From assembly GCA_943704415.1 (NCBI GenBank), contig CALSCO010001754.1, forward strand, positions 1 to 39,457: 39,457 nt of DNA, read 5' to 3'. Of the stretch, positions 209 to 39,337 are shown one piece after another. The position numbers and the translations under genes are program-made. Source of the stretch: Parvularia atlantis. Lineage: Eukaryota. How positions within the stretch are numbered: the stretch's first letter is position 1; the number at the start of each line of letters is the position of its first letter. Under the pieces are notes generated by a model. It was not told the DNA's origin. It saw only the letters and a program-made list of their open reading frames with translations, and ran no database searches.

Positions 209-560
209 ATGCAGCGCGCACTCACTGCCCTGCGCCGGCGCTCGCGCGTGGGCGCCGAGCCGTCTGCAGACGTGACGGGTGGGGCGAATGCCGATTCCGC
301 CGCCAATGCCGTGACCGCCGCGCACGACACGGCCAAGAGCAGCGCCGCCGCGTGGGCCCCGAGATGGCTGCAGTTCCGCCGGCCGCGCGCCAAGAAGGCG
401 TTCTCGACGCTGGGTGCGTGAGACGCCGCTGCGACGCCGCGTGCGACATCAATAGTGACGCGATGCATCGTAGACATCCGGCCCGACCGCCTCACCGACA
501 TCGAGCAGCAGGCGCTGAGCAAGCACCAGCAGCACCAGAAGGAGCACCAGCACCAGAAGG

Positions 561-591
<31 letters not shown>

Positions 592-2413
592 GGAGCAGGA
601 TGCGCCCGCATGCAAGCCGCAGCCGCAGCCGCAGCAGCCGCAGCCGCAGCCGCAGCCGCAGCCGCAGCCGGCCAAGCAGGCGCCAGCGCCGTTCGAGGAC
701 CTTGTCGGGCTGCCGTCGTCGGCCAGCATCCTGCGCTCGCGCCGCGAGGAGGCGACGCTCGTGCTCCTGGGCAAGATCGCGCTGCACGGCGACTTTGCGG
801 CGCGGTACGAGCTCGTGGGCGAGCTCGGCGTGGGCGCGTTCGGCTTTGTGCTGCTGGCGCGGCAGCGCGCGACGGGGACGCCTGTCGCGGTCAAGCTCAT
901 CTCGCGCGCGAGCGTGAGCGCGTCCAGCCTCGTGCCCGACGTCGAGCACGGCCTCGTGCCGGCCGAGATCGCCGTGCTACGCCGCGTCGAGCACCGCAGC
1001 ATCATCCGCTACCTCGACAGCTTCGTCGACCAGCTCTTCTTCTACATCGTGACCGAGATGCACGGGTGCTCGTGGGCCCCGACCTCGCAGTTTGACCACC
1101 TGCGCCACCGGCCCGAGGGCAACGCGCCGTTCTCAGACCCGCTCGGCGACCTCTACGCGAGCCGGCGCAGCAGCATCGCCGCCTCATCGACCGCGCCGCG
1201 GCGCCCGCGTGCTGCCGGCGTGGCCGCGCTCCGGACCGAGGCCGCGGACCAGAAGCGCCCCTTTGGCGAGAGCCCGACGACGTCGCTGTCGACCATCACG
1301 AGCGCCTCATCGCACCACGGCTCGGTCGGGTCGCTCGATCTCGAGGGCGACGCCGACGCCGACGACAGCGCGGCCGGCATGGACACGGGTGACGAGACCG
1401 ACGAGAGCGAGGAGGCGAGCGGGAAGCTGCTGGCGTCGCCGAGCCGCGACGCCGACGACGAGGACGAGGAGCTGCCGCTGCCGCGTGCGGCCCGGGCCGA
1501 GGCCGGCGGCAACGGGCTGCGGCGCACGGTGACGCTGGGCAACCTCGCCGACGAGGATGAGACGCAGGCGGCCATGTCGCCGCGGCCGTCGCACCACCAG
1601 CACCTCGGGCACTCGGCCGCCGGCGCCAATGCACCCGTCGCCGCGCGCTCGCCGTCCATGACCGCGCCCCGCGCCGCCCCATCGATCATCGGCCGCCGTC
1701 ACCGCCGCGCATCGCTCGCCGCGTCCATGTTCAGTCGCCAGACGAGCCCCTCAGCGCGGCTGCTGCACACGAGCGCGCCGCTCTTGCGCCGCGAGTCGTT
1801 CATCACGCCGCCGAGTCACCCGGTCGAGCGCGCGCCGCGCCGGCGCACGGCGTCCGACCCGAGCAACCAGCGCTTCCTGCCGCTCGCGCTGCGCCGGACG
1901 TACACGCACGACCTGTTTGACTGCATCGAGCACTTCCGGCGGCTGCCCGAGCGCCTGGCGCGGCACGTGTTTGCGCAGGTGGTGGACGCGCTTGAGTACC
2001 TGCACGGGCAAAACCTGTGTCACGGCGACATCAAGGACGAGAACATCCTGGTGGACCGGCGGTTCAACGTGCGCCTGGTGGACTTTGGGGCGTGCACGCC
2101 GCTGGACCGGGCCGGGAGGCTCAAGGACTTCACGGGCACGATCCACTACGCCGCGCCCGAGGTGATCGAGGGCAGCGCGTTCAGCCCGGCCGCGGCCGAG
2201 GTCTGGACGCTGGGCATCCTGCTCTTCACCATGGTCACGGGCTCGACGCCGTTCCCGAGCGTGCACCAGGCGATCGCGGGCGTGTACCAGCGGCCGCGCG
2301 GGGTCTCGCCGGCGTGCATGGACCTGATCAACCGGTGCCTGCAGCCGCACCCGTACTTCCGCGTCTCGCTGGCCTCGATCCGCGCGCACGAGTGGCTGGC
2401 GGGCAAGGCGTGA
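209..2413 (+). CDS. Ser/Thr protein kinase, PASK/CAMKL-like (no PAS domain seen), with a large low-complexity insert in the kinase domain; exons 209-413 and 474-2413
   Basis: Kinase motifs GVGAFG, VAVK, HGDIKDENIL, DFG, GTIHYAAPE; the TEMHG...DLFDCIE and DIKDEN signatures are PASK-like. A 60-nt GT-AG intron (414-473) joins the ORF from ATG 209 in frame. Confidence 0.85.
522..670 (+). repeat. CAG / CAGCCG coding repeats (poly-Q and QP tract) in the kinase N-terminus
   Basis: Visible (cag)n and (cagccg)n runs encoding QQQQQQQQ and PQPQPQ. Confidence 0.9.
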
Positions 2414-2832: not shown

Positions 2833-3354
2833 TCACTGCAGGCCCGCGCGACGCGCCTCGTCCGCGTTAGGCAGGAGGCCCATGAGCCGGCCTTCAATTA
2901 TTTTCCCCCCGCGCGACACGCACGTGAGCACACGAACGGCAGCAACAGCAGCGCGCACAGACGGCGCACCGGAGCTGTTCTGGTACGCGAGCATGAAGCC
3001 GCCGATGCTCGCGAAGAGGATCGCGCCCGAGACGCCGAGCGTGACGTTCTGCGTCTGCCTCCGCGCTGCCGCGTGGCCCGCGCGCGCACGTCAGGCCATT
3101 GACCAGGTCGCGCCACGTCGCGCGCCGCCCACGCACTGAACCAGAGGCCGTAGGCGTACCCGCCCCCCGTCGCCACGCCCCACAGCGCGTAGTCGTTCTC
3201 GCTGAAGTTGCCCACAACGTCCCAGAAGCGCGGCACCTCCTTCACGACCGGGTACGGCCGCGGGTCGGTCCTGCACCGCCGCCGCGTTGGCGCGCGTGAG
3301 AGGGGAGGGGGGAGGGGGGCCGCGCGCGCACTCGGAGAGGTGCAGGTTCTTCAT
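2833..3354 (-). CDS. NUXM: Mitochondrial complex I accessory subunit, NUXM / 20.9-kDa family; 4 exons
   Basis: Spliced product MKNLHLSETDPRPYPVVKEVPRFWDVVGNFSENDYALWG...IGGFMLAYQNSSGRLMGLLPNADEA; the YPV..P.F..VV.NF...DY and GF..AYQ.S..RLMG..PN motifs are typical of the family. Confidence 0.85.
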
Positions 3355-3473
3355 CCTGGCGGCGTGTGTACGTAGGTGAAGGTCTAACAGTTGTACGTTA
3401 CATCACAGCCGCTGTGCAGATAGCTTGCAGCCTCACGAACACTTGTGCTTTGCTGCACAGCCGCTGCGTACAG

Positions 3474-4972
3474 ATGGGCACAACGGGTCAGGCGTTCCTG
3501 CGCTTCCTCGAGAAGTGGCAGCCGGTGCTGAAGGACTCCAAGTTCAAGGAGACGGGCGTGCTGACGCCGGAGGAGGTGCGGGCGGGCGGGCGCTTGAGCG
3601 GCGCTGATCCGTGACACGCGCGCCCAAGTTTGTCGCCGCGGGCGAGTTTCTCGTCTACAAGTTCCCGTCGTGGCAGTGGTGAGCGCTGCGCGTGCGGGGG
3701 CCGTTGTGCGCTGCGCGTGGTGCTGAGCGCGCGGCAGGGGCGCGGGCGAGGAGGCGAGCCGGCGGCCGTACCTGCCGGCCGACAAGCAGTACCTGGTGAC
3801 GCGCAATGGTGCGCGTGATCTGCGCACACGGCGCGGCGGCTGACGGCTGATCGCGCGTGCGGGGCCGCAGTGCCGTGCTACAAGCGCGTCAAGGACATGG
3901 AGTACGTCGAGGGCGACGAGGAGACGCTGGGCGACGGCGACGGCGACGACTGGCTCGCAACACACGCGTCGGGTTCGCGCACGCGCCTTTGTCAATGCGT
4001 CATCGGCCGCTGAACGCGCGCCCCTCTGCGCGCCGCAGCCAAGAGCAAGGCCGACGAGGAGCCGATCGAGATGCTGCCGTCGTCGGCCAGTGCGAAGCCC
4101 GCGGCACCGCCCGCGAACGACGAGGATGACGACGACGAGTGCGCTCTGTGCCGCCACGCGATGCGCTCGCGGGCTGACGGACTGCGCGCGCGCGCGCCCT
4201 GCAGCGTGCCCGACCTGGAGGACCTGGACCTCGAGAACAACCTGGTCGAGGAGGAGGACCCGGTGCGGCCGGCCGTCTCCACCAGGCGGGCGCGGCGCGC
4301 GCTGAGACCGGTACCCCGCGTGCTCGCAGGCCGCGCTCAAGCCGCAGGCGGACGACAAGGCCACGGGGGACAACATCCTCAAGACGCGCACGTACGACCT
4401 CAGCATCACGTATGACAAGTATTACCAGACGCCGCGCATGTGGCTGTACGGCTACGACGAGGTGCGCGGCGGCGCCGCGACCCCCGCGTCGTTAACTCAC
4501 GAGCCCTCGCGCGCGCAGAACCGGCGCCCGCTCACGCACGAGCAGCTGTACGAAGACATCAGCCAGGACCACGCCAAGAAGACGGTGACGATGGAGCCGC
4601 ACCCGCACCTCAACATCACGCAGGCGTCGATCCACCCGTGCAAGGTGCTGCTGCTGCACCCGCGCCGCTGCCGGCCCGGCCCGCGCTGACCGCGGCCACG
4701 GCCGCCGCAGCACTCAAACGTCATGAAGCGCATCATCGACAACCTGACCGAGAACGGCAAGGAGCTGCGCGTGGACCAGTGCGGGGTGCCGCGTGCGACG
4801 GAAGGGGCGACCGCTCACGTCGCGCGGCGCGCGCACAGGTACCTGCTGCTCTTCCTCAAGTTTGTGTCGGCCATCATCCCGACGATCGGTGAGACGACCC
4901 GGCGGCCGCGCCCCGCCTGACCCGCGCCACCGCGCCGCAGACTACGACTACACGTCGTCGATGGACGCATGA
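3474..4972 (+). CDS. ATG3: Autophagy E2-like conjugating enzyme Atg3; about 11 exons
   Basis: [59 protein letters not shown], catalytic [24 protein letters not shown]; all introns GT-AG. Confidence 0.97.
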
Positions 4973-5093
4973 GCTCGTTCCGTGTGTGCCAGTTGTAGTG
5001 TTCAGAGCTCGGCGTGGTGTGGCCTCGCGGCCGTGCGCGTGCTGAGCACGGCGTCCACACCCGCGGCGTGGCTGAGGTCGCGCACTTTCCACC

Positions 5094-6259
5094 ATGAAGC
5101 TCACGGCCGAGCTCATCAGCCTCTCGGCGCAGTTCACGAACGCGCTGAAAGAGCGCGAGCTGGACCTGCGCTGTGCGCCGTGTTGCCGCGCGCGCGTGTG
5201 CCGTACGCGCACGCTGGTTGCTGATGTGCGCCACGCACCGCAGCCAACAAGATTCCGCAGATCGAGAACCTCGGCGCGACGCTGGTGCGCTGCGCTGCGC
5301 GCTGGTCGACGGCCCTTTCGCGCTGACGCGCACGGTGCGCCGGGCACGCAGGACCAGTTCGACACGATCGACCTGAGCGACAACGAGATCCGGAGGGTCG
5401 AGAACTTCCCGCTGCTCAAGCGGCTGGGCACGCTGCTCATCAGCAACAACCGCGTCGGCCGGGTCGCGCCCGACCTGCAGCAGGCCCTGCCGCGCCTGCA
5501 CACGCTCGTGCTCAACAACAACCTCGTGCGTGCCTACAACCGCACGGGCCGCGTGCGCCTGCATGCTGGCACGTGACGCCATGTGCCGCCCCATGCGCCG
5601 CGCCGCAGCTATCGGAGCTGGCCGATTTGCAGCCGATGGCGCAGCTCACGAGCCTCAGGACACTCTCGCTCATCGACAACCCGTGCACGAGAAAACAGCA
5701 CTACCGTCTCTACGTCGTGCACATCATGCCGCACCTGACCCTGCTCGACTTCCGGCGCATCAAGCTCAAGGTCGGGGGCTGCGCGTCGGCGTATCGGCTG
5801 CATGGCGCTCACGCGTGCGCCTTTGCAGGAGCGGCAGGAGGCCGCCGCGCTGTTCAAGGGCGCCGAGGGCAAGTCGCTTGAGAGCGCCATCAACGCGCAG
5901 CGCACCTTCGTCCCCGGCAGCGTCTCGGACGAGCCCAAGACGGCGGGCCTGTCGGCCGAGGACGCGGCGCGCATCCGGGTGCGCCGCTCCCGTGCGGCTG
6001 CTCGTCAGTGAGGGCTGACGGCCGCGCCGCGCCAGGCCGCTATCAACAACTCGACGTCGCTCGACGAGATCGCCAGGCTCGAGCGCGTGCTCAAGAGCGG
6101 CGGCATGCCCGAGGCGGCCGGTGCGCACACGCTCTTAACTGGCGGACGAGCACTCAGACGCCGCACGTTTGCGCGGAAGGCGCCAACGGCAGCAGCAGCG
6201 GCGGCGGGCTGGCGACGTACATGCAAGGCAACCAGATCGTCGAGATGGAGGAGGACTGA
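5094..6259 (+). CDS. SNRPA1: U2 snRNP A' protein (LRR); 7 exons
   Basis: MKLTAELI...QFTNALKERELDLRSNKIPQIENLGATLDQFDTIDLSDNEIR; LRRcap HYRLYVVH...LLDFRRIK. Confidence 0.95.
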
Positions 6260-6357
6260 GACGGTGCGCGCCACAGCACCAGGGGCAGGCATAGAGGCCG
6301 GCGGCGCTGTGTCGTGTGTTTCGCGCGCGAAAAGAGAGACAGGCTGATACAAGCAAG

Positions 6358-9300
6358 CTACACGGTTGTCTGTGCGGCGAGCACGAGCATGGCGACGACA
6401 AGCGCGTTCGGCACGCCCGCGCTGCGCCCGGCCTCGTCGCTCGCCAGCACGAAGCGCACGATCCGCGTCGCGTCCAGGTACGCCTGCGCGCGGCCACAGA
6501 CACCCGTCAGCAGAAAAACACGAGCACGGGCAGGCACAGCACCAGCGCGATCACGCGGTCAAGCAGATCGTTGTCGGGCGGCAGGGCGCGCTGCAGCGCC
6601 TCGTAGATGTCGAGCAGGCGCAGCTCGAGCACGGCGCGCACGGGCTCGGTGAAAATCTGCGCGGCGGCCGGCTGCTGCTGCGCCGCGAGCGCGTGCGCAA
6701 AGACCTCGGCCTCGCGCTGCGCCATCAGCGGCGCACGCACGTGCCCGAGCGCCAGCACGACCTCGCCAAAGAGCTGCAGCGTCGCGCTCGCGTCCGGCCG
6801 CAGGCTCAGCCGCTGGATGTGCGCCTCGAGCGGCTCGCCAGGAACGACGAGGCGGCACGTCAGCGCCATGTGTTGCAAAATCTCGAGCGTGAGGCGCGAG
6901 AGCGGCGGCAGGTCGACGATGGCCGTGATCTGCAAGAACGGGCCCTGGAAGATCTTGGCGGCCACGACCGCGCCCCACAGCGCCAGCAGCAGCGTGTCCT
7001 CGTACACCTCGCGGTACTCGCCCGCTCGTGCGGCGTCGCCGCGATTGGCGGCCGCGCGCATCGTGCCCTTGCGCGGGATCCACTCGTCGGCCCACTGCCA
7101 CGCGCGCCGCAGCGTGCGCTCGAGCGGCAGCTCGCCCACCGGCGCGCTCGCGAGCTGCAGCGGGTTGGTGAGCACGCGGTCGACCAGCTCGTTCTCTGCG
7201 TCCGCGGTCAGCGTACGTACTGCCCAGCACACGCCGCAGGGCTACGCACCCAGCTGGCCGCACCACTGCGCCGGCGAAAACACTGTGCCCGTGGCCTGGC
7301 ACGCGAGCGCCGTCGTCTGCTGCCGGTCGAGCGCGAGCAGGCACGTCTTGACGTCGTGCAGCGTCACGGGGCTCCCGAGCGCCATTGCGTCGGCCAGGGC
7401 GTCGCCGCCGGTGAAGTAGCGCTGGCACGCGCCACACGGGCACACGATGAGCTGCACGCAGGCGCAGACGCGTCAGAGGGGCAGAGCAGGCAGCGAGAGC
7501 GCACTTCGTCGACGACCTTGACGCCGGGCTGAGCCGCGGCGAGCACGGTGCGAACGTGGCCCGGGACTAAGGCCGTGCCCAGCAGCTGGCTCTGCAGCAG
7601 AGCGAGTGGGCCGGCCGCCGGTGCCGCGGGGCGCAGGAACACAAGCACGAGCGAGCGCGAGCGCGCAAACCACGCCACGAGCGCGCGCCCGTCCTGCTCA
7701 CGCCGGCCGTTGGCCACGAAGCCGTTGCGCCACGACGCGCCCACGTCCAGGTCCAGCAGCGACGCGCGGCGCACGTCCACCAGCAGCTCCACGCCGAGAT
7801 CGGCCGCCGGCTGCGGCGCGAGACGAAGCACGCGCACGGTGCTCGTCCACGCTGCCGGCTCGACGCGCCACGGCCGCGCTGGCTGCTGCGCGCCCAGACC
7901 CCACGGCAGGAGCAGCTGCTGCAGGCCCGGCACGGTCGGCGTCTTGGCGTCGGCCGGCTCAAACAGCGGCACGGTCACGCCGAGCTCGCACAGGCACGCC
8001 GAGAAGGCCTCGCGCAGCGGCTTGGCCAGACGACGCCACGGCGGCACCTGGCTGAAGACGTCAGCGTGGCGGAAGACGGGCAGCGGCGTCGTCGTGGCTT
8101 CGCCCACTTGGTCGCGATGCTGGTGCTGCACCCAGCGCGGGAGCATCTGGCGCACGGCCGCGAGCGAGTCACCCAGCCACTCGGCCGCAAACACGATCAG
8201 GTCGCCGCCGGCCGCGCACGCCGCACCGCGGTCGCCGCCGCAGTAGAGCACCTCGCCCAGCGCGTGCAAGAAGCTCAGCGCCCGCGCAACCTCGCCGCCA
8301 TCCCGCACGCCGTCGACGTCGGCCCGGCGCGCGACCGGTACGAGCCACCGGCGCGCCTTGACGACCGTCGCACCCACGAGCGGTGCCGTGCCGCCAGCTG
8401 CCGTCGCTGCGCCCGCACCGCCGCCGCTGCCATCGAGCGCTGAGTCGCCGGACGCAGCCGCCGGACCGCGCCGCCGCTCGAGCGGGATGCGCTCCTCGAC
8501 GTCGGTGAGCGAGAGCCGCTCGATGCCGTCGGCCTCGTCGTCGTCGCTGAGGGCTCCGCTCGCGGCCGCACCGCCTCGACGCCACAGCCGGTTGTGCGGG
8601 CGCAGTTCGGGGCTGGCGGGCGAGGCGCTGCGCTGCGCGTTGGCGGGATGGGCGAGCTGGCGCACGTCGTCCGACTGCGAGAACGAGAGCGAGTTGCTTT
8701 TGGGGCGCATCTTGCCCGTGCGCGGCGACTGCAGCCCGGGCGCGGCGAGGCCATCGCCGACGTCGATGCTGACGATCGTGTTGGAGTGCGCGCTCGTGAA
8801 CACCTGCAGCACGCCCGGCGACGTCGGCCGGCTGCCCGGGTTGCTGCTGCCGCCGCCGCCGCCGCCGCCCGCGTCGCCGCCCAAGCCCGTGCTGGGCGAG
8901 CGGTGCCCGCCGCCGCCACCGCCGAACCAACTCGACAGCGCAAAGCCCGACGACGCGTGCGGTAGCGGCTGGTGCAGCGCCGTGCGGCTCGAGAGCAGCT
9001 GCAGATGCTCCTCGCGCACGCGGTCGACCAGCGCCTGGTCGCGCCAGCGCCAGATCTGCCGCCACACGTCCGCGTACGTCGGCGGCAGGTCCATCGCGAC
9101 ATACGGGCGCGTGCCGACGATGGTCAGGAGGTGGTTGCGCAGCAGCTGCACGTCTGCGCGCTCGTGCAGGTTGAGGCAAGGGATGATGTGCATCGACCCG
9201 GCCAGGTGCGCGCGCTCGACGGCCGAGCTGACCACGGCCAGGCACACCTTGGCAAACGCGTGCTTCTGCGCGGGCGTGGGCCGGTCGACGCCGAGCGCGC

Positions 9301-19561: not shown

Positions 19562-22500
19562 ATGGCCGCGGAGGGCACGGTGCACGAGGCGGCGCGGCAG
19601 GGCGACGTGCGCCGCGTCGAGCTGCTGCTGCAGCAGGGCGCGAGCGCGCTGGCGCAGGACGCCGGTACGCTGCCGTTCGGCGTGCAGCAGCGGTGCGCGC
19701 ACCTGACGCGGCCTGTGAGCAGACGGCATGACGCCGCTGCACGTCGCCGTGCGCCACGACCGCAACGACGTCATGCTCGCGCTGCTGCGGCGCGGCGTGC
19801 CCGTCGACGTGGCCGACGCCGCCGGCAAGACGCCACTGCACCTCGCGGCCGAGACCGGCCAGCCGGACGTGCTGCAGCATTTGTTTGAGCACATGGCCGA
19901 CGTCGACGCCGAGACGCACAGTGCGCGCCCGCCGGACGTGTTGCGCTCGCCGCGCCACTCAAGCACCCGCACGCGCGCAGCCGGATGGACGCCGCTGCAC
20001 TGCGCCGTCGCGCACGGCCACGCCGCCGTCGTGCTGCTGCTGCTGGAACGCGGCTGCGCCGTCAACGCAGCCACCGCCGGTAGCACGCACGGCGAACTGC
20101 ACCGCGCAAGTGCTGACAGCGTGCGCGCGCACACATAGACGTGCAGACGCCGCTGCATCTCGCGTGCGCGCGCGGCAGCCACAGCCTCGCGCAGCTGCTC
20201 GCGGCGCACGGCGCGGATCTGAACGCGGTCGACGCCGGTGCGCGGCCTGTGGGTGGCGCCTGTTCTTGCCTGATTTGCGCATCGCAGTGCGCCGGTCGCC
20301 GCTGCACCTGGCCGTGCAGAGTGAGCACGACGAGGTCGTCGCGTGGCTGCTGCAGAGCGGCGCGCGGCCCGCGCCCGTGGACCGATGTGCGGCGCCGTGC
20401 GCGCTTCTTGTCGCGTTCAAGCTGACACACGCGCACGGCACGCAGACGACCGCACGCCGCTGCTCATTGCCTGCACGATCCCGCGCGCGTCGCTCGTCGC
20501 CGTGCTGATCGAGCACGGCGGCTTCGTGCCGGCCATCCGCGGCGGTGCGGTGCGCGCACGTCATTGCACACTCGGCTGAGCACAACGGCAGACGGCCCTG
20601 CGTCGGTGCTGCTGGCGACGTGCCGCGCGCTGCTGGAGCACGTGACGAGCGCAGGGGCCGGTGTGAACGCGACGCTGCTGCTGGCTGGCTTCGAAACCGT
20701 CATCGGCCTGCTGCTCAAGCACGGCGCCGACGTCGACGCGCGCTCGGCCGACCTGCAGCAGACGCCGCTCATCTACGCGTGCCTGGCCGGTAACGTTCGC
20801 CTCGCGCAGCGCCTGATCGACCACGGCGCGAGCCTGGACGCGCAAGACAGCAGTGCGTGGCCGCACAGCCCCGCCGGCTGCTGCGCTCAAACCGGTGCGC
20901 CCCCCTCGCAGCCGGCGCCACCGCGCTGCACTACGCCACGCGCAAGGGCCACGTCGCCGTCATGCAGACGCTGCTGCGCAACCACGCCGACATCGGCGTG
21001 AAGGACGCTTGTGCGTGGCCGTCTGCGCCCGCTGCATGCCCCGCCTCACGCGCGCTGAGCAGACGACCGCACGCCGCTGCACGACGCGGCCATGCGCGGC
21101 TTCGCCGTCACAGCGGCCGAGCTGGTCGAGCGCGGCGCGGCGATCAACGCGCGCGACTGCGGTGTGCGCCTGCGCCCTTGCGCGCTGCGATGCTCACGCG
21201 CGCGCCGCCGCACAGACCTCAACACGCCGCTCGCCCTCGCCGTCAAGCACCGCTTCATTGAGGCCGCGCAAGTGCTGCTGTCGCTTGGAGCGGACCCGCA
21301 CGCCAAGAACGGTGTGCGCGGGCAGCGTGGCACGTAGGAGCTCATTGTGTACCGCATGCAGCTGCGCATCAGTCGCCCGGCGAGCTGGCGCCCGAGGACC
21401 TCTCCGCGCACGTGCAGCAGCTGTTTCGGCCCGGTGTGTGCGCGGGCCCGTGCAGACGTGTCGCGCCTCTGACGCAGCGGTCGCGCAGCCGTCGACCTGC
21501 AGGACCGCCAGCTGCTCAACATCCCCGAGGCCGCCGTGCAGCAGACGCGCCCATTTGTGCTGCGCCTGACCAACAACTGCCTGCACGCGGGCTGCCTGGA
21601 CCAGCTCGGCCGCGCGGCGCCGGCGCTGCTCACGGGCCTGTTCCTCGACGGCAACGTCGTGTTTGGGAGCATCGCGGCGCAGCACATGGCCTCGCTGCGC
21701 ACGCTCTACAGCCTTTCGCTCGCCGGCTGCAACCTGAGTAGCAAGGACGTCGTCGGCGTGTGCGCCGCGCCCGCACTGCGCACGCTCGTGCTCGCCGACA
21801 ACGCCCTGGGCGACCTACCGCGCGAGTTCAGCCAGCTGCAACAGCTGCGCCGCCTCGTGCTCGCGCACACCGCGCTCACGGCCGTGCCCAACGTCCTGTC
21901 GACGCTGCATACGCTGACGTCGCTCGACCTGCGCGACAACGCCATCTCGTCGGTGCCGCACGGTGCGCGTGCTTGCATCCTGCCTGGCCACGCAAGCACT
22001 CACGCGCGTGCGGGCTGCAGCGGTCGCGCTCCTGCCCAACCTCGTGCACCTCGACCTCGGCGGATGCACGCTGACGGGCGCGCTGGCGTTTGTGCGGCGC
22101 GAGCGCTCGGCCAACGTGCTCGCGTTCCTGCGGGACGTCGCATGGGAGAGCGAGCGGGTGTTTGCGACGCGCGTCGTTGCGCTCGGGCACCGCGGCACGG
22201 GCAAGACGACGCTCTGCAGCGCGCTCTTCCCGCCGCGCGGCGTCCTGCTCAAGCGCCGCACCAACGTGATGAACGTGCTGATGGACACGTGGAACGTGCC
22301 GATGGACACGTGGAACGAGCGCCTGTGCGAGCTCGAGTGGGGCGCGTTTGTCTACTCGCGCCCGGGCAAGGGCGGCCTGTGGGAGCGCGCGGCGCCGATC
22401 GACCTCGCCCGCTCGCGCGTCATGCCGCTGCCGGACAGCCACACGGACTTTCGCATCCTGCTCGAGGGCGAGTACCGGCCGTTTGACTTTCGGTGCACCC

Positions 22501-25500
22501 GCTGCCGGGCTTGCTGCGACCGCGCGGGTTAACGTAGACGCATGCGTGCGCGCGCAGGTGCGCTACCGCGAGCGAGTGCGCCGACTGGCTGTACGCGCTG
22601 CGTCAGCGCGTGGCCATCGCCGTCATGCCGCTGCCCAAGCGGCCGTGGCTGGCCGCGCGCACGTTCACCAGCAGCCAGCTCGACGACGCCCAGCTCTACG
22701 CCCCGCCGAGCTACCCCGCGCTGATCACGAGCGCGGCCGCGGCCAAGCAGCGCAGCAACCGCGTCCCGCATGGCGCCAAGCTCGCCGTGCACGTGTACGA
22801 CGTCGGCGGCCAGCGGCACATCTTTGATGGGCATCGGCTACTGCTGGCGCGGAGTGTGCCGACGCTGTACCTGGTCGCGTGGGACACGCGCACGCGCAGC
22901 TCGTCGCGCCGGATGGTGGCCCTGGCCGAGTTGCGGCACTGGCTCGCGGCGCTGCAGCAGCAGCACCTCGCCGCGCCGGACGACCCCGCTCGCGCCGGCG
23001 CGCTCGTGTACATCGTCGGGACGCACGCGGACGAGCTCGCGGACGACCCGCTCAAGCTTGAGCAGTGCACGCACGCCGTCATGGCGCTCGTGCAGGCGCT
23101 CAGGTTTGCCCTGCCGTTCCGCATCGTCAACATCGACAGCTGCAGCGCGACGCAGGCCCACCAGCTCGCCCAGACCGCGCTCGCCGACCTCGCGAGCCAG
23201 CATCACCTGGGCGAGGAGCTGCCGCGCGTCTACCTGCGCGTGAGCCGCTGCCTACTTCAGGCGAGCCTGCACTTCCAGGGCACGGCGCTGCTCACGCAGC
23301 TGCAGAGCGTCGCAGCGCGCTCGCAGGACGGCGATGTGCCCGCTGCCGGGCGACTGCGACCGCGCGTGGTAAGCGACCAGACGCCGACGACGACGCTACC
23401 GCCGGCTGACGGTGCCGCAACGCCAATTGTGCCATCTGCGGTGATGCCAGCCCGCGTGCGCACGCCCGTGACGCCGAGCGAGGTGCTCGTGCGTGCCGAT
23501 GCGCTGGACGCCGGCATCGTGAGCGGCCTGTCGAGCGCGGCCGTGCTGCGCGTCTTGCGCTTCTGGGCGCGCCGCGGCGAGCTGCTCGGGCCGGCCGGCG
23601 GCGCCAAGGGCGTCGTCGCGGGGGCGCCGCTTTGGCTGCTCGAGGAGCTGTTTGCCGAGACGGCACACCGCCTTCGAGCGCAGCTGACGCCGGCTACGGG
23701 CGACGAGCAGGGACCGTTCGGCTCCGCGGGCGACTTTGTCTTCATCGACGACGTGCGCGACAGCGACGCAGCACACACGCCTGTCCTCGAGCATGCCCGC
23801 CTCTTCGCCGCGCCGTACGCCGGCATCTGGGCCGCGCTCCTCGACAGCCCCGCGCAGCTCGAGGCGGCCTTCACCGTGCTGCACGCGCTCGAGCTCGCCG
23901 TGCCGTGCGACGGCGCGCAGATCGGCCGGAGCGACCCCGCGCGGCCCTTCCGTGACCGCGCATCGTTCATCCCCGCGAGCCTACCGAGCTTTCCGCCGCC
24001 CGCCTTCGAGTGGCCTGCCGCGCCCGCCAGCGATGGCGCGACGACGAGTGACCGCGTGCACGGCGTGGAGCTCGACGGCGTGCCGCTCGGCTTCCGCTCG
24101 CTACTCTTTGCTCGCCTCGCCGTGGCGCTGCCTGGCGCGGACCTGGCAAGCAGCTGGCAGTACGTCGCTTCAGCGCACTCGCTCGCTGCGCACTGACGTC
24201 TCTTGTGCTCGCGCGGGGCAGGAGCGGCCTGCTGTTTGTGCAGGGCGAGCGCTCGATCCTGGTGACCGTGCACGACAACACCGCGCGCGTGCGCGTGTGC
24301 GTGCGCGGGCCCCGCGACGCCAGCGACGTCTTTGACGTGTGCCTCGGCACGCCGGCCAACCCGGGCGTGCTGCGGCTGGTGCTGCTCGACCACTTCCCGG
24401 ACACGCGCGTGGCCAACTACGTGCGTGCGCCCGTCCGCCATCACGAGCGCTGATATGCACGCGCGTGTGCAGTTTGTCGAGTGCACGTGCGCAGGCTGCC
24501 GCCGGGTGCACGCGTGGCAGTGGACGAGTGCGGCAGGCACGCACGTCATCAAGGTGCGCGAGCCGATCAGTGCCTGTGCGCGTGCCCTTACACGTACGCG
24601 CATGCAGGACAAGACGATGGGCATGCTCGGGCGGCGCGAGCTCTGGCACGACATTGCGCGCGCACTCGAGCCGTTTGTGCACCCGAGCGAGCCCCCGCAC
24701 GACTACTCGCTTAAGGAGCTGTTCCAGGCGGTCGGCGCGCACCAGCAATCGGGGGCCGCGCCGACGCTAGCATGCGTGCGCACGGGCGAGACGGTGACGC
24801 TGGCGTCGCTGATGGAGGGTGTTCGTGCGTGCTGCACCCTGCACCCGTCGTGCCTGACGCATCTCACGCGTTCGCCCGTCCCGCAGCGCTGCGCAAGACG
24901 AGCGGCAAGACGCGTGACCCAGTCTCGAAGCGGCTGACGCTGGTGCGGTCGCGGGTGGCATTGCCACGTGCCCTAACGCGCGTTTGTGCCGTCCAGCGCA
25001 CGCCGCTTGTGCCGCTGGTGCTGCCGAGCGTGATGGGCTCGCCGCCGACGTCGCCGCCCGCGACCGCGCGAGCCACCGTAGCCTCGCCGGCGCTGGCGCC
25101 GTCGCCGCTGTCTCCGCCGCTGCTGCCGCCCGCTGCCGCTGCGCGCCGGTCGTCGGTGGCGTCGGGCGCACCGCATCCGGCAGGCGTGCGCAGCCGCTTG
25201 CAGGAGATGCAGGACTACGTGCGCGCGTATTACAAGCTGGCGGACGAGCGCGCGCTCACGCGCCGCGGGCGTCTGAACGCGACCATCTTCGAGCAGCCGC
25301 TGACGTGCGCATACTTTGATGTACTAGTCGAGGCGCTCGCGGGCGTGTGCCTGGCGGGCCTGCTGCTGCGCGCGGGTGTGTGCGGTGTGGCCGAGCTGAC
25401 GGACTTTGGCGTCGCGACGACGGCGGGGCCCTGTGCGGCGCTTGTTGCGGCGCTCGCGTCGGCGATCGTACTGCAGATCTCGACGACCGACGAGGAGGTG

Positions 25501-25976
25501 CGTGCGCTCTCGTCTCTGTCCGCACTCGACTCACATGTCGCGCGCAGGCGCGTGACCGCCTGCTCGTCTTTGCGCTCGCAGGCAGCCGCGACCGCACCTT
25601 GGCACTAGTGGAGCGCCTCGCCGAGCTCGGGTGCATGGTGCGCGCGGCGCAGGTGCTCGCGATCGACCAGCCGCCGGCCGACCAGCCGTCGGCGCTCGTG
25701 CTGAGCCTGTGTGGCGCGGATGTGGCGCGGGAGGCGATGGCGGCGCGCATCGCCTGGGACGGCAAGGCGGCGGCCAGCACGGCGCAGCGCCTGGTGCGTT
25801 CTTGCTCGCTGCGCCGCGATGTGTGGCGCTGACAACGTGCACGGCAGGCGTGGCATGACGCGGACGCGCTCGTGCAGCTGTGGCTGCAGCAGCCCACACC
25901 CGCGCGCGAGCTCACGGAGCCGCCGCAGCTGGACGAGTTTGCGCAGACCCTGGCCATGGTTATGCAGGGCCGGTGA
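19562..25976 (+). CDS. Roco family protein B: ankyrin repeats - LRR - Roc GTPase with inserted PH domain - COR - unknown helical C-terminal domain; no kinase; about 20 exons
   Basis: Ankyrin repeats (GMTPLH, GKTPLH, GWTPLH and others); LRRs LRTLVLADNAL and LTSLDLRDNAI; P-loop RVVALGHRGTGKTT; G3 VYDVGGQ...H; LYLVAWD; G4 IVGTHAD; COR VLRFWARRGEL, FIPASL, VPLGFRSLLFARL; CTCAGC...LAC. Confidence 0.87.
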
Positions 25977-26033
25977 CATTGCTCTTGTGACCAGTGTGCC
26001 TGTGCTCTAAGACGAAGCCGATGGATAGGAAAG

Positions 26034-26333
26034 CTATGCCCTGGGAAGCCCGAGCCTGGCCAGCGCCTGCTCGAGCTGGGCGAGCTCGGCCAGCAGTGCC
26101 GGCTCGGTCTTGATCTTGGCGATCTGCATGTGCGCGTGAGTGCGGCAGGCTGAGCGCGGCGCGCACGCACCTGCGTCTCCTCAAGCGGCGCGCCCTGGCG
26201 CTGCTTCTCCTTGAGCGGGTCGATCTGGCGCAGCTTCTTGGTCAGCGCGCGGATCTTCTTTTCCACATCCTCGGCGTTGAGCGGCACGTCGACCTCGGCG
26301 GCTGCAGCGGGTGCGGCAGACGACACGGCGCTC

Positions 26334-26382
<49 letters not shown>

Positions 26383-28409
26383 CAGCAGCAGGGGCGGCAG
26401 CCCGAGCGCCGTTCGCACTGGCCTCCTGCGCAGGCAACGGCACAACGACGACCGAGGCCAGCCGGCGCCAATCAAACCGCAGCAGCTGCTTGCCCTTGTC
26501 GTTCCAGACGCGGTAACCCTGGGTGGGCGCGTGGCTGCGGGCGGGCGCGCACGCTAAGCAGCCAGCCGGTGCGCACGCGCGTGCACACACGGCAGGTCGA
26601 CTGTCGTCGCCGTAAGGACGAGGCGCCCCGTCGGCGAGATGAACTCGGCCACGACCGTCTGCTTGTCCTTGAACTCATTCAGCAGCTTGCACTCGGCGCC
26701 TGCGCGAAAGCACCGGTCACACGCTTACCGCACGCCGGCGGGCGGGCGCACCCGTCGACGACACCGACCACGTCTGGATCGGACACACGTCGTCAAGGAG
26801 GCCGGCTAGGAGCAGACGGCTGCCGTCGAGCGAGAAGCGCACGGTGGCCTGCCCCACGCCGACGAGGTCTGCCGGCAGGTCGTCAGCGGCAGCGCTGGCC
26901 AGTCGGGCTCGCGGGCGCACCCTTCAGCAACGACACGCGCTGCCCGGCCAGATTGAACAGCGCACACCGCTGGCCCGAGTGGTAAGCTGGCAGCGACGGC
27001 CGTCAGACAGGTCCCGGGGCACTGCCCGCCACGCCGCACGCACAGTACAGGAGCGCAAAGAGACTCGAGCGCGGGCTCCAGGTGATGCCGCGGATGGGCT
27101 GGCTCTCGACCTCGACGCGTGTGACGTCTTTGTAAGTGACGACATGCACGGTCACGTCGCCCGGCTGGCCCGCGATCACGACGGCTGCCGTGCCGGCGGC
27201 GTTCCAGTGGACGGTTGCGCTCTTGGCGCGGTAGAACGTCTTCTGCACGATGGTGACGGCAGGCTGGTCGATGTGCAGGTGCCGGATGCACGCGGGCGAG
27301 CTCTTGGTCTCGGTCAGGAAGAGCACGACGCGCTTCGACGTCTGCACACATCGGTGAGTGACAGCACAGTGACAGCGCCGCCCACGCACGGGCTCGAGCG
27401 CAGCCGCGACGACGTGCTCAACGCGCACGGTTGAGTAGTGCTCTTTGGCAAAGCTGCCTTCCTGCGCATCGGTGTCGGCGGTGAGCGCCGACCAGCCGCG
27501 CGGTCGCGCTGAGCACGCGCGCACCCGGTGCACATGCAGCGTGTTGTTGCTCAGGCGCAGGCACACGCGCTCGTCGGCCGACCACTGCGGCGCCCAGCGA
27601 CTCTTCTCGCGCTGGCAGAGCGAGAGCACGGCCTCGCCCGTGGCCACGTTCCACACCTGCACGTTGTCCTTGGCCTGCTCGCCGGGCGCCGTGCCGGCGG
27701 CGGACGGCTCGTCGCCGTCGGCCGAGTGCGCGTAGCGCTGCGATCGCCGTGAGCCGGCGCGTGCGCGCGACGGTTCGACAACGCACCGTCACTTGCAACC
27801 GCCCGGCGAGCTTCGGGTCCGACAAGCGGATGTCCTTGGACGTGCTAGCCGCGCCCTCACGCTCGTGCCTGACAAAGTCGCCCTTCTTGTACGTGGCCAG
27901 GAAGGTGCCCTGGGCGGCGCGGAAGTTGAGCGCGCAGATGCGATGCTGCAAGGTGCGCACACACCAGCGGCGACACGACCGCGTCGTCGGCCACGACGGG
28001 CACACGCGCACGCACCGTGCCCGTTTCCAGATCGACCTAGTCCGCGTACACACGTCAGCGCCGTCTCACCGCGTGCGCAGCCGCCGCACCACGTGCGTGA
28101 AGCCCTCGCTCGCGAAGACCATCCATCGTCCGTCGTGCGACACGGTGCTGAAGCGCACCTGCGGCATGCGCATCTGCGTGCGCACGTGCTCGTCACAGCC
28201 GTAGTGACGACGGTCCGCAAAGCCCGGTCCCGCCGCACCTCGACCACGGCCGCGGGCGTCGCGTCGTACGGCCACGTGACGGACTCGTCCACGCGCTCAT
28301 CGCCGAGGGCGCCCGGCGCGCGCAGCCCGTGCACGGCCACGGCGGGCATGCTCATCGCGTCAGCGCCGCTGACGGGCCCGTGCGTGCGCGCGATCCACGT
28401 CGCGGGCAT
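26034..28409 (-). CDS. eIF2A-like WD40 beta-propeller protein with eIF2A-type C-terminal helical hairpin, strongly divergent; start 28409 (or a Met about 55 nt downstream)
   Basis: SPLGTFLATY, WAPQWSADE, KTFYRAKSATVHWNAAGTA, PIRGITWSP, ISPTGRLVLTATT...GYRVW and VEKKIRALTKKLRQID.LK.KQ..G..LE.TQ..KI follow eIF2A order, but signature loops are lost. Confidence 0.78.
26334..26390 (-). repeat. (GCA/TGC)n trinucleotide repeat encoding a poly-Ala linker in the eIF2A-like gene
   Basis: About 19 triplets with one interruption. Confidence 0.92.
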
Positions 28410-28568
28410 TCGATCGGCTGCGCATCGCCGTGAGCGAGACGTCGCACCTGGGGGGAAAAGTCAAAACAGCATGGCCGGCTGTCACTGTTCGGTGGCCACG
28501 TGGACGGGCCGATCGATCGCCCTTCTTCAACTCTCGCCGCCGTTCCCGCAGCCGTTCCGCGCCCAGCC

Positions 28569-29893
28569 ATGGTCTTCGTGCTGGACGCGTACTACCTGGC
28601 GATCACGGCGCTCGTCGTCGTGCCGTACCAGCTGCTGTTCTTCTTCTTCGCGAGCGGGCTCAAGGTGCGGCGGCCTGCACACACGCGCGTGCAGGAGCCG
28701 ACGCACCTCGCGCGCGTGCGCGGCCAGATCGACACCGTCACCGACTTTGCCGGCGGGACCAACTTCATGGTGCTGGCGCTGCTCACGCTTCTGCTCGGCC
28801 AGACGTACACGGCGCGGCAGATCGTCGCGACCGTGTTTGTGCTCGTGTGGGGTGCGCGGCTGTCGGGTGCGCGTCGTGTGCGACTCGCGCTGTGCGTGCG
28901 GTCGCTCACATCTGCGCGCGGCGCGGCGCGCAGGCTTCCTGTTCTACCGCATCCTCAAAACCGGCACAGACAAGCGCTTCGACGACAAGCGCGACAACTT
29001 CTGGGCGTTCCTCGGGTTCTGGGTCTTCCAGATGTTTTGGGTCTGGTGCGCGTGCCGTCCCGCGCGGCGCCGCACTCGATGCACCTGACGCGCCCGCAGG
29101 ACCGTCTCGCTGCCGCTGACCGTGCTCAACGCGCTGCCGGACGTTTCGCCGTTTGGCAACGCGACCGACATCGTTGGCGTCATCTTGTTTGCGATTGGCC
29201 TGCTCGTCGAGACCGGTGCGCGCTTGCTTGCGTGCTCGTGCGCGCGGACGCTGCCTGCTGACGACTGCGACGCAGTTGCGGATCAGCAAAAATTCAACTT
29301 CAAGGAGAAGCCCGAGAACAAGAAGGCGTTCTGCAACGTCGGGTTGTGGGCGTACAGCCGGCACCCAAACTACGCGGGCGAGGTGCGCGGGCGAGCGGTG
29401 AGCATTGTGTGCGTCTGATGCCGGGGGCGCAGATTGTGCTGTGGATTGGCCTCACGATCCTGTGCAGCACGGTCGTGCGCTTTGACCCGAAGACGTGGTG
29501 CGTGCTGAGCGTTGCGAGCTGCGTGCACGAGGCGACTCACACGCCCCGTGCGCATGCGCGGGCGCAACAGGTTCATCCTCGCCAGCCCGGCCTTTGTCAC
29601 GTCAATCCTGCTGTTCCTGAGCGGTATCCCGATGCTCGAAAAGTCGAGCGACGAGGTGCGCACGCGCGTGCCACTCGGTCGTGCGCGGCTGACAGGGCGC
29701 GGCCGCCGCACAGCGCTACGGCCAGGACCCGGCGTACCAGGACTACAAGGCGTCGACGAGCTGCCTGCTGCTGTTCCCGCCGGCGCTGTTCCAGCCGCTG
29801 CCGCGCTGGGTCAAGGCCGTCTTCTTCTTCGAGTGGCCCATGTACAACTACCTGACGAGCGCGCCGCTGCGCTCGCTCGAAAGCAAGGCGTGA
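28569..29893 (+). CDS. DUF1295 family membrane protein (steroid 5-alpha-reductase-like); about 8 exons
   Basis: MVFVLDAYYLAIT, TDFAGGTNF, WGARLSGFLFYRILKTGTDKRFD, ADQQKFNFK, GLWAYSRHPNYAGEI, LSGIPMLEK. Confidence 0.93.
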
Positions 29894-29939
29894 GACGCTC
29901 CGTTGTGTGTGTTTGTGTTGTGAGGCGAGACCATCGACG

Positions 29940-31601
29940 ATGGACGGTGTGTGCGCCGGCCTGCGCGTCGTGGAGCTGTCGATCTACGTGGCCGTGCCGG
30001 CCGTGGGCGGTGCGCGCGCGTGAGCAGGGTGGCTGCGGCTGCCACGGCGCCGGGCGCTGAGCCGCGCCCGCAGCGATCATGGCCGACTGGGGCGCGGACG
30101 TGATCAAGATCGAGGTGCGCGCGCGTCGTGGGCCTGCGCGCGTCGTGGGCCTGCGCGCACGCACGCGTCGCCGCTGACGATCGCCCGCAGATGCCCACGG
30201 GCGACCCCGTGCGCCGCTCGGTCGTGTCCAAGGAGCTGTCCAAGCCGCGCTCGCTCGTGTTTGAGGCGCGCACGCATGCGCGACGCTACGCATCGAACGC
30301 GCGTCCTGATCCGAGCCGTGCGGCAGGTCAACAACCGCGGCAAAAAGTCGGTCGTGCTCGATCTGGGCACGCCGGCCGGACTCGAGGCGCTGCACGGCCT
30401 GCTGGCGACGGCCGACGTCTTCGTGACCAACTTCCGCCAGGAAGTGCTCGAGTCGCTCCGGCTCACGCCCGCCGAGGTCAGCCGCCGGCACCCGCGCCTG
30501 GTCGTCGGCCTGCTCTCGGGCTACGGCAACGCCGGTCCCGAGAAGAACCGCCCGGGCTTTGACGTGACCGCGTTCTGGGCGCGCAGCGGCCTCGACAGCA
30601 CGCGCTTCCCGGCGGGCGGCGAGCCGCCGCGCGACATCCTCGGCGTCGGGTGCGGGCGACAGGCGGCTGCTGATCGCGCTCTCACGGGCGCGCACCCGCA
30701 GCGACAACACGACTGGCCTGGCGCTGCTGGCGGGTGTGCTGGCCGCGCTGCGCCACCGCGATCACACGGGCAAGGGCCAGGTCGTGACGACGTCGCTGCT
30801 GCGCGCGGCGCTGTTCGCCAACAACTGGGTGCGCGCTCTGCGGCCGTGCGCCGATTGCAGCTGACCGCGCGTCGGCAGGCCACGAGCGTCGAGCTCACGT
30901 CCAACAAGAGTACCGTGCCGCGCCCGCGCACCGAGGCGTCCAATTGCCTCCAGAACAGCTACCGCGCGGGCGACGGCAAGTACTTCTGGCTCGTGCACGC
31001 GGCCGACCGGCGCTGGCCCGAGCTTTGCAAGGCGCGGTGGCACCCTTGTCCCGCCTGCGTCGCCGTCTGACTGCGTTGTTTGCAGATCCTCGGCCACGCC
31101 GAGTGGGAGAAGGACGCGCGCTTCAGCACGCCGCTGCAGCGCGCCAAGAACGCCAAGGCGCTCATCGCCATGATCGACGCCGAGTTTGCCAAACAGCCGC
31201 TGGCGCACTGGTTGCGTCGTGCACGTGGTGTGCGTGCCGCCCGTGGCTGACGCGACTGTGTGCGCGCCACGCCGCACGCAGGGCCACGCAGTTTGACGCC
31301 AACGACCTTGTATGGGCGCCTGTGCAGACCGTGCGCGAGGTCGTCAACGACCCGCAAGTGATCGGTGCGCGCGCGCGCGCGCGCGTGGCCCCTCTCATGC
31401 TGCTGCTGCTCACGCTCGATGCTCGCAGCGGCCGGCGCATTTGCACCCATCCCGAACGGCGTCATCGCGCGCACGGTCGCCAGCCCCGTCGACTTTGAGA
31501 GCTTCCAGTCGCGCCCGCGCGGCCCCGCGCCCGACCTCGGGCAGCACACGGCCGACGTGCTCACGGCCGCGGGCGTGCCCGTCCCGCGCGCCAAGCTCTG
31601 A
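29940..31601 (+). CDS. CoA-transferase family III (CaiB/BaiF) with C-terminal PTS1 (-AKL); 9 exons
   Basis: GLRVVELS, MADWGADVIKIE, NNRGKKSVVLDL, ADVFVTNFR, PGFDVTAFWARSG, catalytic-Asp region GVGDNTTG, APDLGQHTADVL; ends RAKL-stop. Confidence 0.93.
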
Positions 31602-31626
31602 CGTTCACCCCGTCCACTCCGTGTGA

Positions 31627-32563
31627 TCACAGCTTGTTGTTGCTGCCGGCGGGGCGCGCCGCCCGTGCGGCCTGGCGCGCCTTCTCGATGTCGTCGATGA
31701 CCTCCTTGCGCACCTTGGCAAAGTCGTGGTCCTTGCGTTGGCGCATGTGGGCACATGGGTGATGCACCGTGCGTGTGCGCACCTTGAGTAGCGTCTCGTA
31801 CAGCAGGCGTAGCTTGGGGCGGCCGGCGAGCGGCGTGAACTTGAGGCGGCCGCCAAAGATCTCAATGTGCACGAGCCTGGGAAGGCGCGGGTGTCGGTCG
31901 CGTGCAGTGCACAGACGCGCACGCACATGGTACCAATGGCGATGTCGCTCAACACCGGCCGGCGGTTCTTGGTCACGAGCGGGCCCTCGATCTGCGTCTG
32001 TCGACGAGCGCATCGCTCAGTTCTGCGTGCACTGAGTGCTGTTGTGAGCGCAGACCTCGATCGCGTCAAACGCCGTGTTCATCGCCTCGATCGCCTTGGC
32101 GACCGTGTCGGCGTCGACCTTGGACCATAGCACGAACGCGTTCGCGCCGACGTACAGGTCAACGAGGCGCGAGATCTGCGCGTGCGGCGTCAGGGCGTGT
32201 GCGTGGGCGAGCGCGCAGTCGTGCGCACCGAGCGCGAGTGCGCGCGCTCCTCGGGCGCCTCGGGCAGCAGCGGCACAAACACCGGCGGGCGGCAGATCTC
32301 GGCAAAGTACTCGTTGATGACCTCGCTCTCGAAGATGTGCGCGCTGCCGATGCGGCGATGCACGTGTGAGCGCGGATGTCGTGTGTGGATGCGCGCCACC
32401 CGCTGTCGGTCACGAGCGCGGGCACCTTGCCGAGCGGGCTGACCTCGCGCAGGCCGGCCATGTCGGTGTCACGCGACACGATTGCGCAGGGGATGTTGCG
32501 CGAGTAGATGAAGTAGCGCACGCGCGCGCAGTAGGGAGACAGCTGCCAGTCGTACAGCTTCAT
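31627..32563 (-). CDS. Glutathione S-transferase family protein ending in -NKL; 6 exons
   Basis: MKLYDWQLSPYCARVR, SPLGKVPAL, IFESEVINEY, LLP..PEERA, N-cap motif LSDIA. Confidence 0.88.
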
Positions 32564-32632
32564 CCGCGGCAGTGGTAGTTGAGCTGGCGCAAAGTGCACT
32601 TGTACGCAGACAGAACGGCCACAACGGGAAGC

Positions 32633-33972: not shown

Positions 33973-34274
33973 AAGCGTGTGGGGAGCGCAATGACTGATG
34001 GCGATCCGAGCGGCAGCCACATGACATCGCCGATCTTGGCGATCGCGCTTCTATGTAGCTGCTTTTGCAAAGCGGCGGCGGTGAGTCTTCCACCCGCACT
34101 CACGCATCGCACAACGACCACCGCCATGGACACCACGCAGAGCGTCCTCGGCGCTGTCGGCGCTGCGTCGGCGACGACGAGCACCGCGCCGCCCTTGCTG
34201 ACGGTGCGTGAGGAAAGAGTCTACAGCTGTATACGCGTCAGTTGACAATTCTGACATTGCGCAACTATTCCATC

Positions 34275-37698: not shown

Positions 37699-37815
37699 TA
37701 GTCCGCATTCTGAGCATTCTGATCATGACAAGCTCGCTCTGCTCCGCAGTCCTTGGTTACGCCGAATTCTTCAGCCGTCTGATCATGCACCAGCTACGTA
37801 GTGAGCTTTCGCTCG

Positions 37816-39177: not shown

Positions 39178-39337
39178 CTGTAAACCGTGGAGACCTTTTC
39201 GCGCTTTATGAAGCCTGAGCAAAGTACGCACTTCTCTCCATTTTCTCTTTTCCGTCTGCGCACTCTGCTCCAGTGAGCGATTCCGCTTTGTTTGCTTTTG
39301 CACAAAATAATGTTTGCAATTCGGCTTTACAGGTGCG

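Follow-up and report, generated by a model that had tools for sequence, protein, structure and literature searches.

Two divergently oriented kinase-less Roco genes with a PH-like insert inside Roc in a contig of Parvularia atlantis

RocoA and RocoB, two genes that point away from each other in a contig of Parvularia atlantis (CALSCO010001754.1; its whole length of 39,457 nucleotides was analyzed and is called the window here), are a variant of the Roco family with a PH-like domain placed in the switch region of Roc and a conserved asymmetry between the two paralogs. What is new here is that the T-x-G of switch I has been lost in all four of the A-type and B-type proteins (RocoA, RocoB and one ortholog of each from a second organism), and that the glycine of switch II (G3) has been lost in the A pair only. 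At a rough probability of 0.55, and judging from sequence comparison, the two proteins may be GTP-binding scaffolds that are recruited to membranes and have diverged since a local duplication, with RocoB as a residual switch and RocoA as a pseudo-GTPase.

Gene models, common introns and C-terminal tails

The exon models of both genes, which were built by coordinates, contain no internal stops (ATG at 12950 to TAG at 6358 in RocoA; ATG at 19562 to TGA at 25976 in RocoB), and both are backed by spliced transcript data (Table 1). Two sequencing runs, X2 and X3, are presumed to be RNA, and the contigs of X2 skip GT..AG introns. These contigs join 14 of the 20 introns of RocoB at GT..AG ends and set the donor of its intron 17 at 24825; for the remaining six there is no X2 joint, and at one of them a loose end matches the upstream exon. 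The last 304 residues of the RocoA model are reproduced exactly by the EukProt protein P0151, which spans introns 13 and 14 and confirms the stop, and an X2 piece also ends at the exon borders of these two introns. The other 12 introns of RocoA have no X2 joint among the matches listed, where the joints are mostly those of the PMCA gene; the RocoA joins A9-A11 are crossed by a single open reading frame in the ortholog P0021. The run X3, which carries the label of another organism, covers hardly any of either Roco at a likeness of 85% and carries no weight. The window is 65-75% GC, and introns are 46-70 nt long.

Table 1. Positions in the window of the two Roco genes, their parts and the two genes that they enclose
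Feature	Position	Strand	Remarks
RocoA gene	6358..12950	-	15 exons, 14 introns, 1943 aa; Ank-LRR-Roc(PH)-COR-Cys cluster-tail
RocoA ankyrin repeats, aa 1-516	10980..12950	-	8 internal introns, all in phase 1, of which 7 share one repeat position
RocoA LRR, aa 517-728	10242..10928	-	several repeats per exon
RocoA P-loop (G1), aa 736, intact	10194..10220	-	
RocoA PH-like insert within Roc, aa ~753-850	9806..10169	-	split by a phase-2 intron
RocoA switch II (G3)	9554..9574	-	DVNH, without the DxxG glycine; ortholog DVNR
RocoA COR, with low-complexity insert of ~240 aa and Cys cluster at its end	7250..9091	-	
RocoA C-terminal ~260 aa	6358..7195	-	no family match, non-kinase; predicted helical at low confidence
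TPR gene	13130..13858	+	intronless, 242 aa, C-terminal hydrophobic segment; head-to-head with RocoA
PMCA-type Ca2+ ATPase gene	13958..18809	-	head-to-head with RocoB; TIGR01517 is the top match for 4 of 6 fragments
RocoB gene	19562..25976	+	21 exons, 20 introns, 1766 aa; domain order as in RocoA
RocoB ankyrin repeats, aa 1-441	19562..21433	+	
RocoB LRR, aa 442-647	21489..22163	+	
RocoB P-loop (G1), aa 655, intact	22185..22211	+	
RocoB PH-like insert within Roc, aa ~674-772	22242..22603	+	same phase-2 intron as RocoA
RocoB switch II (G3)	22793..22813	+	DVGG, canonical DxxG; ortholog DVRG
RocoB COR-A, COR-B and Cys cluster	23219..24824	+	
RocoB Pro/Ser linker and C-terminal domain	24887..25976	+	no family match, non-kinase

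An earlier sequence-only reading of the window had described a divergent pair of Roco genes with starts about 6.6 kb apart, a common domain order, at least six common intron positions and strong sequence divergence, enclosing a TPR gene and a Ca2+ pump, and this description holds up: the starts are 6612 bp apart, both proteins have the order Ank-LRR-Roc(PH)-COR-tail with no kinase, all six intron positions were recovered outside the Ank region, identity is 33% over 1030 BLAST columns (32% over LRR-Roc), and both enclosed genes are confirmed. Ankyrin repeats were found in all four exons scanned, and LRRs in both proteins.

Among the common introns, those outside the Ank region weigh most. Five of the six in RocoA match one of the 10 in RocoB in both alignment column and phase, and random placement of introns gave three or more matches in 0 of 200,000 trials. 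The sixth was placed by a local anchor, 17 residues past a conserved Cys, and is in phase 1 in RocoA, RocoB and the ortholog of RocoB, which has exactly the six non-Ank introns common to the two paralogs. The last common intron sits in the tail, where the 40 residues around it are significantly similar between RocoA and RocoB (4 and 1 of 2000 shuffles); taken as wholes, the two tails show no significant homology (86 and 52 of 200 shuffles; 149 of 300). Six further matches in the Ank region weigh less, because nearly all Ank introns are in phase 1 at one repeat position. An old local duplication is the likely origin of RocoA and RocoB. A more recent one, or gene conversion, was considered and rejected, the longest blastn match between the two genes being 124 bp at 73%.

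The absence of a kinase, also claimed from the sequence alone, is borne out: neither RocoA nor RocoB has a Pfam kinase match. Short motifs resembling those of kinases occur in both tails, but decay from a kinase was rejected, as a Roco-kinase profile (two sequences, scored on the tails of RocoA, RocoB and the RocoB ortholog) did no better than shuffles; the look-alike motif of RocoB is not kept in its ortholog. The tail that follows the Cys cluster, about 230-260 aa long, has no Pfam or PDB match, and the ESM Atlas gave no usable match for the tail exon of RocoA; a PDB sequence search with the Roc-COR and tail exons likewise returned nothing significant. AlphaFold models of the tail are all-helical and of low quality (pLDDT 38.7 for P0151 from one sequence, 43.0 from three rows). 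The C-terminal domain of RocoB is 36% identical to that of its ortholog.

The Roc-COR core, its GTPase motifs and the PH-like insert

A home-built profile, made from 10 retrieved Roc-COR sequences of canonical type, scores 31.9 bits on RocoA, 68.8 on RocoB and 63.1 on the ortholog of RocoB, with none of 100 shuffles reaching each score, and its matches run in the order Roc, COR-A and then COR-B, the last in RocoB and its ortholog. The COR-B region of RocoA matches neither this profile nor Pfam COR-B. Pfam Roc and COR models have no match above threshold on the exons of the window, and Pfam COR-B on an exon of the RocoB ortholog falls below its cut-off (E 0.003).

In both paralogs and their orthologs, the insert lies between the P-loop (G1) and switch II, so placed that G1 and G3 are 175-241 aa apart in these four proteins. 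Of the 10 canonical Rocos, 8 have a spacing of 45-56 aa, and the remaining two (P0012 and P0011) carry their own inserts. The Pfam PH match is weak on the RocoA exon (E 0.021) and nearly reaches the cut-off on the ortholog P0001 (E 3.4e-5; 24.7 bits against 25.1). The corresponding exon of RocoB has no Pfam PH match and was assigned by its 39% identity to the PH-like insert of RocoA; PDB matches to PH domains are weak (E 0.066). The insert ends in a Trp-bearing helix, as is typical of PH domains at their C-terminus. Of the signature by which PH domains bind phosphoinositides, K..(K/R)xR, the Lys and the final Arg are present in all four proteins, the middle basic residue being Q or N and the next residue D or E. 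With a PH-like domain, membrane recruitment is plausible.

The P-loop, GxxxxGK[ST], is intact in all four proteins. The strict switch I (G2) pattern of Rocos is T-x-G-hydrophobic, for which the retrieved Rocos served as a check, and it occurs in none of the four. It is found in 9 of the 14 retrieved Rocos, and the Roco fragment P0014 has it right after an insert. The absence of G2 proves little, because G2 is naturally variable, as this count indicates. Rocos use a G4 variant of the GTHxD type, which is exact in RocoA, its ortholog and RocoB; in the ortholog of RocoB the Asp is shifted by one. DxxG of G3 is kept in both B-type proteins, and its glycine is lost in both A-type proteins, which have a glycine one residue later; this displaced glycine might substitute for that of DxxG. 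According to excerpts of a review (PMC6337361), the G3 region is the most conserved in Rocos and G2 is variable. RocoA is likely a pseudo-GTPase, because both A-type proteins are without the G3 glycine that RocoB keeps, and RocoB is likely a partial or residual switch; such an asymmetry, as predicted from the motifs, would fit a pair of one dead and one active partner.

Orthologs, gene neighborhood and proposed function

A HMMER search with a two-exon profile (LRR end, P-loop and PH) of 1.84 billion representatives, from which the proteins of the host itself are absent, gave 20 matches with E<0.001, two of them below 1e-10: P0001, which is A-like, and P0002, which is B-like. Over LRR-Roc, RocoA is 52% and RocoB 50% identical to its ortholog, compared with 32% between the paralogs. 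A tree of 18 rows (14 retrieved Rocos and the four A-type and B-type proteins, with low-complexity parts of RocoA and RocoB left out) joins RocoA to its ortholog (100/100), RocoB to its ortholog (99/99), and these four to P0014 (100/99). RocoA and RocoB are sister paralogs within this set (90/86, not starred); a family phylogeny was among the checks proposed in the sequence-only reading. Four outgroup rows of the tree have long branches. The duplication predates the split of the two organisms, because the second organism has one ortholog of each gene; its neighboring genes and introns in common with the window suggest that this organism, known from metagenomes, is a related amoeba. Other searches added nothing: one with a RocoB exon against 2246 longer-protein candidates found no homolog and was insensitive, having also missed the 50%-identical P0002; one with the profile A4 was swamped by generic LRR proteins; and scans of viral_contigs with P0001 and P0014 found no relative.

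The divergent orientation does not amount to a promoter shared by the two Rocos, since RocoA faces the TPR gene (start-to-start gap 179 bp) and RocoB faces the PMCA gene (752 bp). A metagenome scan found the ortholog of RocoB in three of four loci (GC about 58%), and it is head-to-head with a PMCA gene in L001 and L003, the two that reach far enough upstream; L001-L003 end within or before the PMCA gene, with the RocoA side beyond their reach. Within 4 kb downstream of the ortholog are a GST-like gene, a small membrane-protein gene and a kinase gene (identified by Pfam), of which the counterparts in the window are at 32563-31875, 3248-3006 and 719-2413, respectively, in changed order and orientation; the first two in the window we take to be GST-like and NDUFB4-like. 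The longest contig listed measures 80,514 bp for P0021 (A type) as well as for P0024 (B type), and the two orthologs are probably on one contig. Of the synteny that had been proposed for inspection in related species, the adjacency of RocoB and the PMCA gene is therefore kept and the linkage of RocoA and RocoB probably so, the TPR side being outside L001-L003. This linkage needs no functional link, because unrelated neighbors have also been kept nearby in the second organism, and RocoA and RocoB likely lie close to each other as a leftover of their duplication, which ordinary microsynteny has maintained. A functional link of the Rocos to the enclosed genes had been called speculative, and it is still only adjacency that ties them.

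As membrane-recruited scaffolds, RocoA and RocoB would bind anionic membrane lipids through the PH-like insert, which, lying in the switch I loop, would couple membrane binding to the conformation of Roc in place of the lost threonine. COR-B would mediate dimers, like that of other Rocos, and the Ank and LRR arms together with the conserved tail would carry the signal output in place of a kinase. The most likely role would be in feeding or endolysosomal trafficking. Each Roco gene faces a different neighbor across its own promoter, and binding of RocoA to RocoB would not be required.

The strongest competitor, possible though distinctly less probable, is an obligate COR-mediated heterodimer on membranes, in which a dead RocoA and a switch-competent RocoB complement each other and have been retained jointly for that reason. 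Exactly one gene of each type has been kept in two organisms of which the orthologs are only about 50% identical, the G3 asymmetry is conserved, the longest contig listed for the A-type and B-type orthologs is of the same length, the single run X2 has contigs for both genes, and COR-B is better conserved than COR-A between RocoB and its ortholog (52% versus 35% identity). According to PMC4104024, Rocos dimerize by way of the C-terminal half of COR, with both homodimers and heterodimers under discussion. Joint retention is nevertheless weakened by the lack of a promoter common to RocoA and RocoB and by the unrelated genes kept nearby, which account for the linkage, and the COR-B of RocoA, with its failure to match either Pfam COR-B or the home-built profile, is the more degenerate of the two. 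A bolder form of the heterodimer of pseudo-GTPase and GTPase is more doubtful still: the PH-like domain in switch I would have taken over, so that lipid rather than threonine drives the Roc-COR cycle, with the helical tail as the output.

It is improbable that RocoA and RocoB belong to a diversifying family of immune-like sensors of the kind proposed for the LRR-ROCOs of brown algae. Both combine repeat sensors with Roc-COR and no kinase, and the Ank introns, which share phase 1 and, with few exceptions, a single repeat position, would permit exon shuffling; but the hallmarks of the brown-algal genes, one LRR per exon and hypervariable LRRs, are absent. Most LRRs lie in one exon of about 160 aa in RocoA, RocoB and the RocoB ortholog, orthologs are conserved in the LRR about as well as anywhere (57% identity for RocoB and 54% for RocoA, compared with 40-46% for the remainder of Roc), and only the two close clusters were found among the 1.84 billion representatives, which do not include proteins of the host. 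Least probable of all is a functional cluster of the four genes, with the Rocos taking part in Ca2+ signaling alongside the PMCA and the membrane-anchored TPR protein as adaptor: the head-to-head pair of RocoB and PMCA has survived while other neighbors were rearranged, and the starts of RocoA and the TPR gene are close, but compact genomes often contain head-to-head pairs, whose common promoter DNA protects them from being broken up, no TPR ortholog is present in L001-L003, which end inside or before the PMCA gene on that side, and the domain search of the two Rocos gave no Ca2+-binding domain.

Comparison with known Roco systems

Among the literature matches listed, none describes a PH domain inside Roc or Rocos of nucleariids, although Bosgraaf and van Haastert 2003, Marin 2008 and supplements may list such inserts; no paper was found that joins Roco and pseudoGTPase. 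By the EukProt label of its exact match P0151, Nuclearia_a, the host is a nucleariid; Nuclearia is an opisthokont rotosphaerid. Nucleariids are the deepest holomycotan branch, according to portions of a preprint (bioRxiv 10.1101/2023.12.07.570557), and fungi are reported to be without Rocos, which are tied to chemotaxis and phagocytosis, in sections of PMC4104024. With Rocos present in a nucleariid, of the phagotrophic sister lineage of fungi, their absence from fungi is likely a loss, consistent with a role in amoeboid feeding.

The animal proteins LRRK1 and LRRK2, the latter known from Parkinson's disease, have the order Ank-LRR-Roc-COR-kinase-WD40. RocoA and RocoB have the Ank-LRR-Roc-COR part of this order in common with them, and LRRK1 is the best PDB match to the profile of the LRR end and P-loop (E 0.0018). 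Unlike LRRK1 and LRRK2, they are without kinase and WD40, carry a PH-like insert in Roc, have lost G2 and, in RocoA, the G3 glycine, and end in a tail without family match. For LRRK2, the way in which Roc-COR links nucleotide state to dimerization and to recruitment to membranes is a matter of continuing debate, as stated in parts of PMC6337361, and the pair provides a test case for whether dead/active heterodimers work.

CtRoco of Chlorobium, human MASL1/MFHAS1 and placozoan Rocos likewise have no kinase and join repeat arms to a Roc-COR core, and CtRoco dimerizes via the C-terminal half of COR (PMC6337361 and PMC4104024, both in excerpt). In these kinase-less Rocos, Roc is uninterrupted, according to the partial descriptions available and to the retrieved bacterial-type sequences (45-56 aa between G1 and G3), whereas RocoA, RocoB and their orthologs have 175-241 aa there, with the PH-like domain.

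The LRR-ROCOs of brown algae are kinase-less LRR-Roc-COR proteins like RocoA and RocoB, and excerpts of PMC11378527 report one LRR per exon in their genes and, in some, non-conserved insertions inside Roc. In RocoA and RocoB, by contrast, the LRRs are conserved and not one per exon, there is no sign of expansion, and Ank and PH are added. P0014, a metagenomic Roco fragment of 663 aa with LRR, Roc and COR-A, carries an insert of about 80 aa where RocoA and RocoB have theirs. P0014 differs from RocoA and RocoB in that both G2 and G3 are kept in canonical form and the insert has no Pfam PH match, and so far as its motifs indicate it looks like the undegenerated state. Three states, canonical in P0014, half-degenerate in RocoB and further degenerate in RocoA, would offer a comparison for identifying the motifs that the Roc-COR cycle needs.

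Ankyrin-region introns and Roc inserts

The introns of the ankyrin regions of both Roco genes are phase 1 throughout and mostly occupy one position of the repeat, three residues upstream of a motif resembling TPLH (7 of 8 in RocoA, 8 of 10 in RocoB), and thus delimit frame-neutral exons of 1-3 repeats each. For the RocoA intron predicted to have GC-AG borders, no RNA joint was found among the matches listed.

Among other retrieved Roco proteins, the interval between the P-loop (G1) and switch II (G3) of Roc contains a Pfam DEP domain in P0011 and an insert of ~80 aa with no assigned domain in P0012 (labelled Thecamoeba); in P0014 the insert is PH-like. Domains appear to have been inserted repeatedly into the switch I loop of Roc. 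The first loop of RocoB's PH-like insert is longer by seven residues owing to a 21-nt tandem duplication, which is spanned with 0 differences by a contig of sequencing run X2 (presumably RNA) and is missing from the RocoB orthologue.

Positions of features in the window and in L001, the metagenomic locus of a second organism
Feature	Sequence	Position	Remark
Protein kinase gene	window	422-2413	Pfam Pkinase; long low-complexity insert
Protein kinase gene	L001	11006-12469	
Neighbouring genes	window	2900-6260, 26000-39457	named by eye
RocoA ankyrin region	window	10980-12950	
GC-AG intron	window	11395-11451	predicted; RocoA ankyrin region
TPR gene	window	13130-13858	
Last PMCA exon	window	13961-14053	
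PMCA, X3 contigs	window	14053-18287	spliced
(GA)38 tract	window	19030-19105	752-bp PMCA/RocoB intergenic region
43-bp tandem repeat	window	19386-19471	same intergenic region
RocoB ankyrin region	window	19562-21433	
21-nt duplication	window	22271-22317	RocoB PH-like insert, first loop

Neighbouring genes

Both organisms retain a protein kinase gene close to the Roco block, each on a different side of it; the gene is not supported as a partner of the Rocos, which themselves have no kinase domain. The other neighbours are genes that we take to encode NDUFB4, ATG3, U2A', eIF2A, a DUF1295 protein, a CaiB/BaiF protein, GST, endonuclease III, ASCC2 and a cap methyltransferase.

The enclosed TPR and PMCA genes

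The TPR gene has no introns, although the genome is intron-rich, and its stop codon is 100 bp from that of the convergent PMCA gene. Its product ends in a strongly hydrophobic C-terminal segment (mean hydropathy 2.8) that resembles a tail anchor. Spliced PMCA contigs were found in run X3, which is labelled as a different organism; their intron joints are identical to those of the window and few letters differ, which points to a close relative as the source. The final exon of the PMCA gene codes for a segment that is basic and amphipathic, similar to the calmodulin-binding tail of animal PMCAs; it has no Pfam match.
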